Source: a virus (lineage: Duplodnaviria > Caudoviricetes). Taken from it: a stretch of 64,000 nucleotides of DNA. The translations under genes were made by a program, and so were the position numbers. Within the stretch, counting starts at the first letter, position 1; every line of letters begins with the position of its first letter. The stretch lies in the IMG/VR virus record IMGVR_UViG_3300021364_000005. One strand, given 5' to 3'. Under the pieces are notes generated by a model. That model ran no database searches. It was not told the origin of the DNA and saw nothing but the letters and a program-made list of their open reading frames with translations. Positions 5,750-40,787 of this stretch are shown piece by piece.

Positions 5750-5768
5750 CTCAAATAAAACACGTAGA

Positions 5769-35792: not shown

Positions 35793-35945
35793 TTAGGCTT
35801 TTTTAGCCATATTTGTAGCAGTGCCGTATTTTACAGCTTCCCAGTCTTTACCATAACGTTTTTTGAATTCTTTGTCAGGGAGATCGTCTGCGTAATCGTC
35901 ACGCTTCTTAATTTCTTTTTTTGTAAGTTTACGTTCGCTTGTTAC
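35793..35945 (-). other. Unannotated 50-codon coding segment in the -1 frame of 35942..36862
   Basis: VTSERKLTKKEIKKRDDYADDLPDKEFKKRYGKDWEAVKYGTATNMAKKA-stop. It has no start or SD of its own and is reached via A-AAA-AAG at the upstream stop. Confidence 0.7.
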
Positions 35946-36862
35946 TTTTTTTTTGATTCTGCGAGTTTTGCATGAAGTGCCTTTTTATATGGATCGTTTG
36001 TTTCTTTTGTAACGATCTTAGGCTTTGCATTTGTTTCAGGCATAGCTGCTTCAGAAGCTTCTTCATAATCCATATGATGATATACGCTTCCTATATCATT
36101 AGCTGCTTTTGTAATTTTACTTTGAACCCATCCGTCGAGTCCTTCTGCTTCTGAAACACCTTTAAGCAAGTCGTGTAGCTTTATTGCGTATTTTGCAATT
36201 TTATATAGTTCTGCACGAGCCATTTGAACTTCATGATCTTGTTCAGCACGATGAGCGAGATCGCCTAAACCTTCATTAGTTTTTTTCTTACCTAAAATTT
36301 GGTCTTTAATTTTACCCTTTTCTTCTTCGCTTGCACCATCACGTCCTGCTTTTTGTAATTTTTCAAAGCCTTTTTTACCGTATTTTTTTATTCCGGTATA
36401 ACGCTGTAAACCGCTTTCTGTAGTATCTGTATCGCTCATATCACTTTCTCGCTTTATTGGTTTGTATGCTCTGCCATCTTTAAGGGCATCAATGTACATT
36501 TTAAATGCACTATTATTATTTATCTGTCCACCTTGCCAACCGCCTGGCATTTTCTTAACCCAACTTTGTCCTGCCCATTGCCACATAATACCTTTAGGAT
36601 CTTTAAACCCTGTGCCTGGAGGAATTTCTTTGACACTTTTTGGAATAGGTATATTAGGATCAACTTTTACAGGAGTTACAGGAATAGGTTTCCATTCTGC
36701 CTTTTTTGGTTGCGGTTTGTCGTCACCATATGTGTCAGGATCTAAAGCCTTATCAACAGCTCTGTTTAAAGCATCAGGGCTTTTTTTACCTGCTTGAAAT
36801 CCTTTAGCGAAACCTTTGGCTACACTTTTGAAAGGATTTTCATTTAGTTCTGACTTTCTCAT
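35942..36862 (-). CDS. Probable internal head protein (modular, Lys-rich)
   Basis: MRKSELNE N-terminus; TAAATA (36867-36872) 4 nt before the ATG. Confidence 0.65.
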   Translation of the reverse strand: MRKSELNENPFKSVAKGFAKGFQAGKKSPDALNRAVDKALDPDTYGDDKPQPKKAEWKPIPVTPVKVDPNIPIPKSVKEIPPGTGFKDPKGIMWQWAGQSWVKKMPGGWQGGQINNNSAFKMYIDALKDGRAYKPIKRESDMSDTDTTESGLQRYTGIKKYGKKGFEKLQKAGRDGASEEEKGKIKDQILGKKKTNEGLGDLAHRAEQDHEVQMARAELYKIAKYAIKLHDLLKGVSEAEGLDGWVQSKITKAANDIGSVYHHMDYEEASEAAMPETNAKPKIVTKETNDPYKKALHAKLAESKKK

Positions 36863-36869
36863 ACAGTAT

Positions 36870-37103
36870 TTATGCCTTCTTCTTTTTCTTTTTAGGATTC
36901 CGTGACTTCATATTTCCAATTGGCATTGCTACACTTGCAACACCGCCTGCTGCTGTTGTTTCCGAAACTGTAGGATCATTACAGTTGCAGTGCTTACAAG
37001 TTGGAGGACATTTGCAATCTTCGGCCTTTGTGTCTGCTCCGCAACATTTATCTGAGCAATATTTGTCCTTTTTTTCTTCAGCTAATAGTTCATTGATTTT
37101 CAT
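36870..37103 (-). CDS. Small Cys-rich probable head protein
   Basis: MKINELLAE, then YCSDKCC...CKCPPTCKHCNC; GGAGG SD; TAATG coupling. Confidence 0.65.
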   Translation of the reverse strand: MKINELLAEEKKDKYCSDKCCGADTKAEDCKCPPTCKHCNCNDPTVSETTAAGGVASVAMPIGNMKSRNPKKKKKKA

Positions 37104-37360
37104 TAAAAATCCTCCATGTTCCATCCAGTTTCTGGATCTAATCTTCGTAATTGTTTTTTATACTTTTTATATGTTTTCCAATATTCTTCACGTTCATTTG
37201 CTCTTGCCCGTCGAGCTTCGTGTTCTTTTAATTTGGCAACATAGTGTGCCCATTCAATATCATCTATACTGTTATCTTCGTGTTCTCTCCACGTTTTGCT
37301 ATACCCGTCTGGATATAGTTCTACTACTTTTTCTTCCCGCCCTTCATATTTGCGCACCAA
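37103..37360 (-). CDS. Hypothetical protein
   Basis: 85 aa in operon. Confidence 0.55.
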   Translation of the reverse strand: MVRKYEGREEKVVELYPDGYSKTWREHEDNSIDDIEWAHYVAKLKEHEARRARANEREEYWKTYKKYKKQLRRLDPETGWNMEDF

Positions 37361-38589
37361 TGATACATCCTCGCTTTCTCACCTGAGCTATTCTTAGCTC
37401 TCTTTCGTAAATCTGTAACACTACCGTTGCAACTAGCACCTGAACGTTTTACACGCCCTGGTCTGCTTTTGCCTTTTTTCTTACCGTCAGCAAAGTTTTC
37501 GCCTACTGCTTGTTTAATTGCTTTTGCTGTGCGTTCGAATTTATGGTCTTTGTACTTAAATCCTATACCGCCTGCAGATTCCCATGCATTTATGTTTACG
37601 CCGTAGTCGTCAATTAATATATTAGGAGTACCATTTTCGTTTTTTGCATATTGTGGTTTATTATGAGTTATGTATATATTTTTTGGAGGGAAGAAACTAA
37701 GATGCTTTTTGATCCATTGTTTCTTGTGTGGCTCTGATCTAGGGTCATCTGCTAATGGACTAGAACAAATATTATAACTGCCTTTAACTTGCTTTATTAA
37801 CATAAGCAATTCTTTAGCTTGAGGCAACATAGGCAGTTTCAACCAAAAATCATCTACAGTTTTAATTTTCTTTAAAGCAGCTTGTGGATCTTTAATATCT
37901 CTAAAATTTTTCTTACCTGCAACTTTTGCCCATTCTCCAAAAAAGTCTGCAAGCACTCCGTCCATATCGACGTAAATCTCTGTGCTTGGATCTAATTCGC
38001 CTAATGCTTCGGATAAGTCATAGGCAGCAAGCTCTTGCATTATTGCGCTCATTCTTTTTTGAGGACGTTGTGGAACTTCGTGTCCACCTTCCATTAGTGC
38101 TAGTTCATATGCGGAGTAATTTTCATGATATGCTTTATCAGTTGCTGTTTTTGCTTTTTCAGCATCAGGGTGTTTTGGATTAATAGTAACTACTTCGCCA
38201 TTAATTAGTTCTGCAACATTTGCACTTTTGCCAATTGTGTCTAATAGCTGATGTAAATCATCATTAGGATCATAGTTACCACTTTCATATCCTAACTTTC
38301 CTCTTACTTCTGTACGCCTACCTGTATCAGTATTAGTAATGTTAAGGACAAGCATTTCTTTATCTCTTTCAAGTTGTAATTTATACCCTTCTGCAAGTCC
38401 TAGATTAAAAAGAACATTTGTTGATTTGCCTTTTACTTTGCTACTCAGCGTAGGAGGCTTTCCGTCTTTATCTACTTTGTTTCCAAACTTAGCTGCTTCG
38501 ATAGAAGTTTGATTAACACCAACATCGTGTGTTGTATTAACACCTTTTACTATTCTTCCAACTGCTTCATCTAAATGTTCAATTTTCAT
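37324..38589 (-). CDS. Multidomain probable head protein carrying a 5'(3')-deoxyribonucleotidase (NT5C-like HAD) domain
   Basis: Start MKIEHLDE at 38589 (ATGA coupling); YVDMDGVLADF...K--W...LIDDY--N--AWE-AGG-G. Confidence 0.75.
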   Translation of the reverse strand: MKIEHLDEAVGRIVKGVNTTHDVGVNQTSIEAAKFGNKVDKDGKPPTLSSKVKGKSTNVLFNLGLAEGYKLQLERDKEMLVLNITNTDTGRRTEVRGKLGYESGNYDPNDDLHQLLDTIGKSANVAELINGEVVTINPKHPDAEKAKTATDKAYHENYSAYELALMEGGHEVPQRPQKRMSAIMQELAAYDLSEALGELDPSTEIYVDMDGVLADFFGEWAKVAGKKNFRDIKDPQAALKKIKTVDDFWLKLPMLPQAKELLMLIKQVKGSYNICSSPLADDPRSEPHKKQWIKKHLSFFPPKNIYITHNKPQYAKNENGTPNILIDDYGVNINAWESAGGIGFKYKDHKFERTAKAIKQAVGENFADGKKKGKSRPGRVKRSGASCNGSVTDLRKRAKNSSGEKARMYHWCANMKGGKKK

Positions 38590-38804
38590 TTTTTCTTGCG
38601 TCCCCTGAATTGAGGAACTCCTGTCATATATGGTTTTGAAAACCATAATTTGAACCAGTCTTTATCTCCTGGTTTTAAATTTAATCTTTTTTCTTTCTTT
38701 TTTAATTCAGCAGCTGTCTCGGAAGGGTTTTCGTCAATGTGATATTCTGAGTATCCTTTGAATTCATTTATACCTGCTAGTCTTTTTAAAGTATCTAAAT
38801 CCAT
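38586..38804 (-). CDS. Small probable head protein
   Basis: MDLDTLKRLAGINE; basic C-terminus. Confidence 0.6.
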   Translation of the reverse strand: MDLDTLKRLAGINEFKGYSEYHIDENPSETAAELKKKEKRLNLKPGDKDWFKLWFSKPYMTGVPQFRGRKKK

Positions 38805-39874
38805 TAGTCTGCATTCCTGATTTGATATTTTATTCCTAAGTTATCAAACAGTTTACTAGCTTGTGCAATATTTGTCAATGCCTGTTTTACTTGTGGTAGA
38901 TATTCTTCATTATCTTCTACTTTACGCATAAACTTCTTTGCCTGATCTGGCATAATCCAAATAAGTTTGCCACTCCATGCAGCACCTTTGCGGTAAAAAC
39001 TTAAGAAGTGTTCTTTGTTATCCTGTCTATTAGCAATCCAGTCTAATACCTTAAGTTTGTTTGGATCCTGTTCTTTAATACTAGGTGCTGTGCTTTTGGA
39101 TTTAAAAACATCAAGTTCGTCTGTTCTACCTTTATGCTTTTGGTATCCTTGTTTAGCAAGTCTTTTTTTGTCTTTGTGCGCACCCATTGCACCGCTCTTA
39201 CGCAAATCTTGCATAGTTTGTGCATTTGGATCTCTTGGCTTGATTAGCTTGGGTTTAGATGCTTCGGTCTGTTCGCTTAGTGCTTGATTTAATAATTGCA
39301 CTGCTGTTTCGGCACCCTTACCATACATTTGTTGTGCAGCCTTTAACTTATCTTCATCTGACATTTCAGGCCAAGTAGCTCTTAGTTCGCTTGCACTTTT
39401 TATCTGCATACCTGAAAAATTGAAGTTAATTGTTGGACCATATGCCATGTATCCTGCTACTTCACTAGGTTCTAAATCTTTATTCTTATAACTTCTTAGG
39501 TATCCTGGTTCGCCATTCTTTTTTATTTGATCAGGTAAAGGTTGGGATGTTTTATCTTTTTCGCTACGGATAAACACTAGTGCTTTAGAATCATCTAATA
39601 TATCTAAATAACTCTTAGCATTAAACGGTGATTTTACTTGTATAAATCTTTGTTCTGGAACGCCTGCCATTGCAGCAAGTTTTTTCTTTACATCGAAAGG
39701 AAATGGTCTTGAACTAGTATCGTTTGTAGCAGCTACGTATACATTAGCTTTTCCAAACTCTTTAACTGCCCAGTCATACAAACTTTTATGTCCAGGATGG
39801 AACGGATGAAACCCGCCAGGCATAATTGCTACAACGCCATTTGCTGATTGTTCAAACAGTTCCCTTAGTAGCAT
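38804..39874 (-). CDS. Probable head protein with a HIGH-type nucleotidyltransferase domain
   Basis: MLLRELFE; GGFHPFHPGH; SASELR. Confidence 0.7.
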   Translation of the reverse strand: MLLRELFEQSANGVVAIMPGGFHPFHPGHKSLYDWAVKEFGKANVYVAATNDTSSRPFPFDVKKKLAAMAGVPEQRFIQVKSPFNAKSYLDILDDSKALVFIRSEKDKTSQPLPDQIKKNGEPGYLRSYKNKDLEPSEVAGYMAYGPTINFNFSGMQIKSASELRATWPEMSDEDKLKAAQQMYGKGAETAVQLLNQALSEQTEASKPKLIKPRDPNAQTMQDLRKSGAMGAHKDKKRLAKQGYQKHKGRTDELDVFKSKSTAPSIKEQDPNKLKVLDWIANRQDNKEHFLSFYRKGAAWSGKLIWIMPDQAKKFMRKVEDNEEYLPQVKQALTNIAQASKLFDNLGIKYQIRNAD

Positions 39875-40200
39875 TAGTAATCACCTTTTCTCAGTGCTTC
39901 TATTTCATCCTCGTATATACGATTGATTATATCATCATAATCTTCAGTTGTCAACAAGTCTTCAGGTAATTTATTAATTTTGTAACATTCTACATAACCT
40001 TTAGTAGCAAGTTCTACCATAGGTCCTATTAAATCTTTAGCATTGTTTTGACTTTTTAACTCGTCCTGCATTTTACACATTGTTGGATAATAAACCTTGC
40101 GGTAAAACATTGGATCGTTTTTCATATACTGTTGAACATCATCTACAACATCAAAAGGCATTTGATCCTGATGTGATGTAAATTCTAGTATCTTTACCAT
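39874..40200 (-). CDS. Hypothetical protein
   Basis: 108 aa, coupled. Confidence 0.6.
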   Translation of the reverse strand: MVKILEFTSHQDQMPFDVVDDVQQYMKNDPMFYRKVYYPTMCKMQDELKSQNNAKDLIGPMVELATKGYVECYKINKLPEDLLTTEDYDDIINRIYEDEIEALRKGDY

Positions 40201-40760
40201 TTTCTACAACTCCAGTATCTTGCTTTTGTTCTTGGACCTGGATTATCACAGTTGTGTCTAGCACGGAATGAACGTCTACGAGCAGGATTAGATTTCTTAA
40301 TCTTCATGTTAGGATCACCAAAGTTTACTTTCTTAACATTCTTAGTCTTTGGATCTCTAACATAAACTTTAAACTTTTTGACATCGCCCTGCATTGGTTT
40401 ACCAAGTTTTACTTTACGGCCTTGATATTCTGCTTCGTCCATTTCTTCATCTTCGTTGTACCACATTACGCCGTACTCTTCGAAGAAGTCATTACCGTCA
40501 TATGTTTCTTCATCAAGCATTTCTTCATTAGTAGAAATTTCAATATCAAAATCATCATATCCTGACTCAGTCATAAACGCAACTAATCTATCAGCATATT
40601 CATCTGCTTCAGATTCTGTTAATTCTCTTGCTAAAGGAATATGAATTACAGTTGCACCTTGTTCTGATTCTAAAAGTTCCATGCCTGGAAAGATACTTTC
40701 ATTTATCATTCCATTTATTTCATCTTGTTTTTCCATTACAACTCTTACAAAATGTTCCAT
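40194..40760 (-). CDS. Probable head protein: acidic N-domain plus basic C-domain
   Basis: C-terminal EAEYQGRKVKLGKP...RARH-C...ARYWSC-KW motif, recalled from T4-like aquatic phages. Confidence 0.65.
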   Translation of the reverse strand: MEHFVRVVMEKQDEINGMINESIFPGMELLESEQGATVIHIPLARELTESEADEYADRLVAFMTESGYDDFDIEISTNEEMLDEETYDGNDFFEEYGVMWYNEDEEMDEAEYQGRKVKLGKPMQGDVKKFKVYVRDPKTKNVKKVNFGDPNMKIKKSNPARRRSFRARHNCDNPGPRTKARYWSCRKW

Positions 40761-40787
40761 AATTGTTTCCTTTTTAGTATTTATCTA

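Follow-up and report, generated by a model that had tools for sequence, protein, structure and literature searches.

In an uncultured marine T4-like jumbo phage, represented here by a 64,000-nucleotide (nt) stretch of IMG/VR virus record IMGVR_UViG_3300021364_000005 (Duplodnaviria; Caudoviricetes; the whole stretch is called the window below), a cluster of eight tightly packed minus-strand genes (40760 to 35942, followed by an extra module at 35793-35941; Table 1) probably encodes a head-cargo system of the T4 type that is modular and polyvalent in form. The proteins start with a T4-like head-loading tag and are therefore probably packed with the DNA. Judging from their sequences, we incline, by a modest degree, to the view that the cluster proteins are loaded into the prohead via these leaders and trimmed. 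The first-pass annotation of this DNA had gone further and proposed polyproteins that are cut into mini-domains inside the prohead and injected as first-strike effectors; the whole series of events, in which the proteins are loaded, cut into modules and injected and then act as effectors, we regard as tentative and rather doubtful.

N-terminal leaders and their link to the prohead core

The five N-termini on which that annotation was built (MRKSELNE, MKINELLAE, MKIEHLDE, MDLDTLKRLAGINE and MLLRELFE) are all present on the minus strand, and a capsid-targeting-like N-terminus can in fact be read in six of the eight cluster genes, the sixth being the gene at 39874-40200, whose product starts MVKILEFTS and resembles T4 IPI (MKTFKEFTS). 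Four of these six genes carry a leader of 8-9 residues, one the IPI-like form, and one a different tag ending in I-N-E. Among relatives the leader follows the consensus M-[KR]-hydrophobic-x-[DE]-[LIF]-x-E and stands ahead of non-homologous domains; orthologues of the 108-amino-acid (aa) protein begin MRIDEF, MKINEF or MKLKEF.

When a simple T4-derived rule ([LIF]-x-E with the Glu at residue 6-10) is applied to the window, 5 of 9 cluster open reading frames (ORFs) are positive, against 6 of the 86 others, and the related 256-kb contig G001 gives 5 of 12 in the cluster against 20 of 276 elsewhere. A position matrix was made from 65 distinct octamers of relatives, with G001 and its near-copies left out; in a scan of the 288 G001 ORFs, the top three scores (at least 11.6 bits) and five of the top six fall in the cluster, and none of 1418 internal-Met octamers reaches 10 bits. 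Across 25 orthologues of the transferase protein (alignment A3), leader residues M1 and R4 never vary and conservation of L6 and E8 is 90% or more, which equals that of the catalytic core.

The simple rule also picks out head genes. A gp21-family protease (Peptidase_S77) is encoded by both G001 and G003, relatives that carry the same cluster, and the consecutive genes of the G001 head module start MTDTNKFEE (acidic core protein), MNLLRE (protease), MEAIKDLLE (scaffold) and MSELLE (major capsid protein); these four are among the few non-cluster ORFs that the rule accepts. By this sequence comparison, the leader is specific to the cluster and common to the lineage's own prohead-core proteins. 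T4 proteins (NC_000866) have N-termini in a similar style: MKTYQEFIAE for ipII and ipIII, MKTFKEFTS for ipI, MELITELFDE for alt, MLKEQLIAE for gp22, MAKINELLRE for gp24, MEGLIE for gp67 and MNEPQLLIE for gp21. Three pairs are strikingly close, namely MKINELLAE with gp24, MLLRELFE with Alt, and MVKILEFTS with IPI. T4 gp21 cleaves after L/I-x-E, and residues 1-10 of IPIII are enough for packaging, positions 4 and 7 being important in targeting, positions 8 and 10 in processing (PMC9026906).

The 72-aa protein appears to use another address. Its family starts M-D-x-x-x-L-K-[KR]-L-A-G-[IV]-N-E, and the gp22 scaffold of the lineage ends [VI]-D-[IL]-[KR]-R-L-A-G-[LI]-[KN], an ending conserved in 120 homologues; across G001 the motif is confined to gp22 and the orthologue of the 72-aa gene. 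We take this N-terminus to mimic the C-terminal tail of the scaffold, and it would therefore be an address for head assembly. A complex prediction for the G001 capsid protein with the 70-aa scaffold-tail mimic scored 0.08 (mark 0.34), which speaks neither for nor against binding.

Some smaller observations touch the head genes. The T4 prohead-core protein gp68 (L068:2524-2949) ends ..KRRKALGLS, recalling the invariant ..KRLAGL[KN] end of the marine scaffolds (G001 gp22, L050:8584-9672); the resemblance may be coincidence. The C-terminal half of the 77-aa protein (..SETTAAGGVASVAMPIG..; window 36870-37103) aligns with the G001 capsid protein (L050:7395-8573) exactly after the predicted maturation site (..SESATSGATAAGNIATL..); this resemblance is weak, 77-91 of 2000 shuffles (~4%) reaching its score, and we make no claim from it. 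Beside the head and tail genes of G001, a 172-aa protein (L050:18426-18944 = G001 96425-96943) starts MKVFEIISE and has an ATAAATA box upstream; by its N-terminus it is a candidate for further cargo outside the cluster.

Late-promoter-like boxes

The heptamer ATAAATA is the core of the T4 late-promoter box. It occurs 22 times in the window, and 14 of the 22 occurrences are intergenic, in sense orientation and 11-38 nt ahead of a start codon. Two boxes stand in front of cluster genes (Table 1), others precede tail-fibre genes (starts 11167 and 63315) and lysis-region genes, and the motif scan of the window found none before the DNA polymerase gene. The G001 cluster repeats the pattern of the window. 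By the motif alone, expression of the cluster would be late enough for prohead assembly. As a separate point, the boxes at 5768, 8417, 35542, 36873, 43246 and 48189 start only 11-13 nt before the ATG, with no Shine-Dalgarno sequence visible; if they are T4-type late promoters, they would yield mRNAs that are leaderless or nearly so.

Modular architecture and cargo

The 421-aa family (alignment A1) consists of the leader, a nearly invariant N-module (..NLGL[AT]E), a variable cargo, and a conserved basic C-module that always follows [VI]-x-E. In the AlphaFold model of the window protein, the predicted local distance difference test (pLDDT) score falls below 50 at residues 1-22, 48-66, 170-196 and 349-375, so that the most conserved part of the family is predicted to be disordered, as would fit a binding segment. 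An N-module profile, searched against 1.84 billion representatives, matched 776 cluster representatives at E <=0.001, 460 of them at <=1e-10; the top match, a 1836-aa repeat protein, was a false positive. Among the top 150 matches, the N-module is N-terminal with a leader in 93, in proteins of ~70 to >1000 aa, and internal in 35, several of which have mis-called starts. It always ends FNLG[LM]xE; internal copies are always preceded by Glu, with a mostly hydrophobic residue at P3, and in two representatives the N-module is joined straight to the C-module via a single shared Glu (..GMSE/NFAD). According to profile and model, leader plus N-module is a 67-residue segment, predicted to be disordered and ending in L-x-E, which is mostly N-terminal in hundreds of families with differing cargo.

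The recognised cargo of the window protein is an enzyme. Its NT5C domain scores 37.6 bits with Pfam PF06941 (cut-off 24.8), the DMDGV (DxDxV) motif is conserved in the family, and the domain is modelled at pLDDT >90 with a HAD fold for which Foldseek returns deoxyribonucleotidases (top 3bwv and 1q92, E ~1e-5). Profile and model together identify it as an NT5C 5'(3')-deoxyribonucleotidase of the HAD superfamily; the folded domain at 68-165 has no Foldseek match, leaving NT5C as the only recognised one. In relatives, Pfam finds in the cargo slot NT5C, Cu/Zn superoxide dismutase (SOD) with a borderline GH19 (24.6 bits, cut-off 25.5), a sub-threshold ParB_N (18-24 bits, cut-off 26.3) and a borderline sigma-r4-like helix-turn-helix (23.0 bits, cut-off 24.1), in the architectures NT5C + SOD + borderline GH19, NT5C + sub-threshold ParB_N, NT5C + borderline sigma-r4, and transferase + sub-threshold ParB_N. 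One relative (L028:7050-9047) carries NT5C, a full Cu/Zn SOD (E = 1.6e-47) and a GH19 lysozyme/chitinase-like region behind the same N-module; this fusion is, by its sequence, a candidate packaged SOD.

In the 356-aa protein, the domain behind the leader reaches 22.1 bits with PF01467 (cut-off 21) and 29.4 with TIGR00125 (cut-off 27.7), its HPGH (HxGH motif) is invariant in orthologues, and it is modelled at pLDDT 80-93 with a Rossmann-like fold, residues 1-6 and most of 207-308 lying below 50. We take it, on profile and model, to be a HIGH-motif adenylyl/cytidylyltransferase; the models of specific substrate families (NMNAT, PPAT) all stay below their cut-offs. The junction ..APVGE that follows the domain is conserved in most relatives.

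Shuffling is most evident in the 306-aa protein, whose 1523 homologues cover only 25-53% of it and carry the same mini-modules in shuffled order; Pfam and PHROG gave no family match for it, and ESM Atlas look-ups with this protein and with the first 200 residues of the 421-aa protein returned nothing usable. In tblastn searches of cultured phages, the 306-aa, 356-aa and 72-aa proteins found almost nothing, the only noteworthy hit being a weak module match inside SSM2_109 of Synechococcus phage S-SM2 (L047:3701-5827). SSM2_109 lies between the terminase small and large genes and encodes a 708-aa string of the same kinds of mini-modules, a helical A-like one and a Cys one among them, without a CTS-like leader (CTS, capsid targeting sequence). 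At the same position in cyanophage S-CREM2, gp136 (107301-108014 of OR473000) starts MQTFSMFFSE and was found in virions.

Leaders in the virion proteome of S-CREM2

For a T4-like cyanophage of cluster C, S-CREM2 (OR473000), CsCl-purified virions have been analysed by mass spectrometry (PMC10665884, Table 3). Several of the virion-detected non-structural proteins start in a manner that recalls the leaders: cytidylyltransferase gp154 (MKNFSSFLTE), S-adenosylmethionine (SAM) hydrolase gp6 (MKDFDSFLEE), gp13 (MKDLHSFLTE), kinase gp14 (VKRFDAFLTE), gp136, gp15 (MNFSEFNE), and gp12, with ..LRFASFMAE near its start. The strict start M/V-[KQ]-x-[FL]-x-x-F-[LFM]-x-E occurs in five S-CREM2 proteins, all of them found in virions, against a base rate of 52/221; under the generic rule, virions yielded 11 of 22 positive ORFs versus 40 of 201 negatives (Fisher p = 0.005). 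The S-CREM2 paper makes no mention of any leader, and it records that NMNAT-like proteins recur in cyanophage virion proteomes (PMC10665884). The literature that we searched contained no paper tying capsid targeting sequences to marine or cyanobacterial phages.

Internal junctions and points against packaging and cleavage

The first-pass annotation also saw L/I-x-E repeated at domain boundaries. The tripeptides that it quoted are all present, and the majority coincide with mapped module junctions or with linkers predicted to be disordered; in the 421-aa and 356-aa proteins, LAE 65-67, LSE/LGE 192-198, VGE before NFADG, and LSE 199-201 are in or at the edge of linkers. Ahead of the modules of the 306-aa family, Glu stands at 43 of 43 distinct internal junctions of module A and at 15 of 15 of module B. 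The Glu at every junction examined and the disordered linkers speak for cutting into mini-domains, whereas P3 at the internal junctions is mostly not that of T4.

The points that weigh against our reading are the following. Enrichment of [LI]-x-E, a check named beforehand, was not seen: the raw count is 23 in 1597 cluster positions compared with 203 in 18661 elsewhere, and the cluster is at background once the N-terminal leaders are removed. P3 at the internal A/B junctions is Thr or Val, not the Leu/Ile of T4, and each module could simply begin with the invariant junction Glu. For these three reasons we consider internal cutting of the polyproteins into mini-domains, as suggested by sequences and models, plausible and go no further. 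Some modules exist as free small proteins without a leader in Pelagibacter phage Kolga and Roseobacter phage CRP-235, both unclassified Caudoviricetes; one of them is the C-module of the 188-aa protein, which is a protein of 79 aa there. These modules therefore have a function independent of T4-type packaging. In Melnitz and HTVC008M, which are cultured relatives, NT5C occurs by itself. The neighbours of the cluster are chaperone and replication genes, and the capsid gene is ~80 kb away, a point somewhat softened by the T4 ip genes, which are also scattered away from the head module. As to the virion proteome, the S-CREM2 authors caution that abundant proteins may co-purify, detection of the cytidylyltransferase rests on 3 peptides (PMC10665884), and this enzyme has weak similarity to the 356-aa protein around the HIGH motif (pairwise E = 0.004).

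Proposed mechanism and alternatives

The idea of capsid targeting itself gains independent support from the specificity of the leader, the late-promoter-like boxes, the scaffold-tail mimic, the module ending in L-x-E and the S-CREM2 virion proteome. We propose the following scenario. The block would be a late operon-like set of head-cargo genes whose products bear address tags, for the most part a T4-CTS-like amphipathic leader, in one protein a copy of the scaffold tail, and in the nucleotidase protein a leader plus a disordered 60-residue module. The address would confer affinity for the prohead core, and the proteins would thereby be built into the prohead. A gp21-type prohead protease, such as is encoded by relatives with the same cluster, would trim the address after Glu and probably also cut the hydrophobic-x-Glu junctions in disordered linkers. 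This would generate small basic modules, the NT5C-type deoxyribonucleotidase and the adenylyl/cytidylyltransferase, which would stay with the packaged DNA and probably exit with it at infection.

Perhaps the head-loaded proteins act inside the head instead, as basic counter-ions, as aids to DNA packing or ejection, or as core filler degraded like gp67/gp68, without any injected effector library. The composition of the cluster would suit such roles, five of the eight proteins having an isoelectric point of 8.9-9.7, with Lys+Arg at 17% against 11% elsewhere in the window and Lys-run ends in four proteins; most modules are small and without an enzyme signature, and in T4, most of the peptides into which gp22, gp67 and gp68 are cut exit from the head (PMC9026906). 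We nevertheless consider this unlikely, since enzymes that look intact are kept (the DMDGV motif, the well-modelled NT5C fold, the HIGH-type transferase), and relatives add SOD and the borderline or sub-threshold GH19 and ParB_N, a set typical of delivered proteins (PMC5512222).

A little less likely again, in our estimate, is that these are unpackaged late proteins of the cytoplasm, the octamer being a tag for the neighbouring ClpA/DnaJ, a stability signal or a translation-initiation optimum, and the junction Glu a module N-cap. In more than 40 related contigs DnaJ and ClpA lie upstream of the cluster, NT5C and nucleotidyltransferases are unremarkable as metabolic genes of phages, and the leaderless modules described above occur in phages outside the T4-like group, all of which would be natural for cytoplasmic proteins. 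Such proteins would hardly be expected, however, to have their own late-promoter-like box, a leader that matches both the prohead-core and the T4 CTS pattern and is conserved by residue type rather than by codons, a mimic of the scaffold tail, which has no obvious meaning outside head assembly, and tagged counterparts found in S-CREM2 virions. A role of the octamer as a ClpA degron was considered because the ClpA neighbourhood is conserved; no supporting feature was found.

That the shared N-termini reflect chance or the composition of an AT-rich genome, with Lys- and Glu-rich starts common, is very improbable: AAA-/GAA-rich starts are indeed common in low-GC phages, and ~7% of unrelated ORFs pass the loose rule, but matrix scores of at least 10 bits occur only in the cluster, the pattern is kept in hundreds of families, and Fisher-type contrasts hold in two genomes.

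If packaging of the cluster proteins is extended to the whole group, the head of these abundant uncultured marine T4-like phages might, as a tentative and again doubtful generalisation, be a general loader: a module with either of at least two tags would be packaged, and uniform hydrophobic-x-Glu junctions would let the head protease free the modules, allowing a large injected repertoire of enzymes and small basic domains to be shuffled freely by recombination. Capsid-delivered proteins would then not be peculiar to coliphage T4 and a few giant phages, and common ocean phages would hold a large, fast-shuffling pool of them; its scale can be judged from the 776 sequence clusters defined by the N-module alone and from the more than 1500 homologues of a single helical module. 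For hundreds of marine phage proteins now labelled 'hypothetical', the reading would give a likely location and delivery route. The scenario also predicts enzymes that act before phage gene expression, namely the nucleotidase, the nucleotidyltransferase and, in relatives, SOD, the GH19 and ParB_N matches being weaker (borderline and sub-threshold). From it would follow a simple rule by which cargo can be recognised in sequences, and natural tags with which foreign proteins could be loaded into the heads of phages other than coliphages.

Relation to known systems

The closest parallel is with the T4 internal proteins IPI, IPII, IPIII and Alt (PMC9026906, PMC3012670, PMC12373910), in which a short leader with spaced hydrophobic residues and a hydrophobic-x-Glu end is likewise the only similarity among unrelated proteins; basic proteins, enzyme cargo (Alt) and a gp21-family protease (here in relatives) are also shared. 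The marine cluster differs from T4 in that its cargo is not homologous, the leader has 8-9 residues instead of 10, several modules are combined in shuffled order within a protein, one family has the extra 60-residue disordered module and one member the scaffold-tail-like tag.

Polyvalent proteins (Iyer, Burroughs, Anand, de Souza, Aravind 2017, PMC5512222) resemble the cluster in joining many unrelated small or enzymatic domains in one polypeptide of variable architecture, in their late gene context, and in their predicted travel with the DNA; the sub-threshold ParB_N and the borderline lysozyme-type GH19 of relatives also recall them. Unlike polyvalent proteins, the cluster proteins are much smaller and would rely on a CTS-like leader for loading and on the prohead protease for release; Pfam and PHROG gave no match to a peptidase (MPTase) or MuF/portal-type carrier domain in the window proteins or in 10 relatives.

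The S-CREM2 virion enzymes gp154, gp6 and gp14 (PMC10665884) also come from a T4-like marine phage and include a HIGH-motif cytidylyltransferase among enzymes with M-K-x-F-x-x-F-L-x-E-type leaders, but they are single-cargo proteins, not shuffled mini-modules, and their sequence similarity to the cluster is weak. The ejection and inner-body proteins of the giant phages phiKZ, 201phi2-1 and SPN3US (PMC5694885, PMC7411985; PMC9026906) are a further parallel to the scenario proposed here, many of them being processed after Glu at short motifs by gp21-like proteases, with redundant sites and a large cargo mass inside the capsid; in contrast to the marine cluster, P3 is Ser/Ala/Gly, the lineages are other ones, and the cargo genes lie largely near structural genes.

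Gene layout

Genes in the window include those for a family-B DNA polymerase, a clamp loader and ClpA/DnaJ as well as tail-fibre-like ones, and almost every gene is on the minus strand. No close relative of this phage was found among cultured phages; between ClpA and DNA polymerase, the gene block is syntenic in more than 40 IMG/VR and ENA contigs (up to 351 kb). Table 1 lists the cluster features.

Table 1. Genes, extra module and late-promoter-like boxes of the cluster (window coordinates).
Feature	Coordinates	Strand	Product or description
Gene 1	40194..40760	-	188-aa two-module acidic protein
Gene 2	39874..40200	-	108-aa acidic protein; IPI-like N-terminus MVKILEFTS
Gene 3	38804..39874	-	356-aa protein; leader MLLRELFE, predicted adenylyl/cytidylyltransferase domain (residues 13-205), variable, mostly disordered C-terminal region
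Gene 4	38586..38804	-	72-aa basic protein; N-terminus MDLDTLKRLAGINE (..LKRLAGINE), like the scaffold C-terminal tail
Gene 5	37324..38589	-	421-aa polyvalent-type protein; leader MKIEHLDE, N-module 9-67 (ends NLGLAE), folded domain 68-165, predicted NT5C deoxyribonucleotidase domain 200-348, basic Cys-containing C-module ending KKK
Gene 6	37103..37360	-	85-codon ORF (TTG start), -1 frame, overlapping the KKK stop of gene 5
Gene 7	36870..37103	-	77-aa protein; leader MKINELLAE, eight-Cys module, poly-Lys tail
Gene 8	35942..36862	-	306-aa four-module basic protein; leader MRKSELNE, helical module A, module B
Extra module	35793..35941	-	Out of frame behind the A9 run at the stop of gene 8
Box 1	40778..40784	-	ATAAATA, 24 nt before the first cluster gene (start 40760)
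Box 2	36867..36873	-	ATAAATA, 11 nt before the 306-aa gene (start 36862)

If the 421-aa gene began at its first ATG (38646), it would run 60 nt into the gene upstream; the start at 38589 agrees with the gene spacing and with all orthologues. The C-terminal ~80-aa basic Cys module of the 188-aa protein matches phrog_7595 (DUF5754-like), and the N-module of the same protein is a separate ORF in some relatives. The Cys module of the 77-aa protein reappears within multi-module proteins of relatives, where the sequence of the 85-codon ORF is kept as small separate ORFs.

The C-terminal Lys runs of four cluster proteins are encoded by A-runs. The 306-aa gene ends GAA TCA AAA AAA AAG TAA, and a conserved module continues behind it in another frame without a start codon. 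Slippage, recurrent homopolymer mutation and assembly error are each possible causes of such frame breaks at A-runs. In the relatives L015 and L018 the module behind the 306-aa gene is in frame at the C-terminus, and in L016 it is out of frame again.

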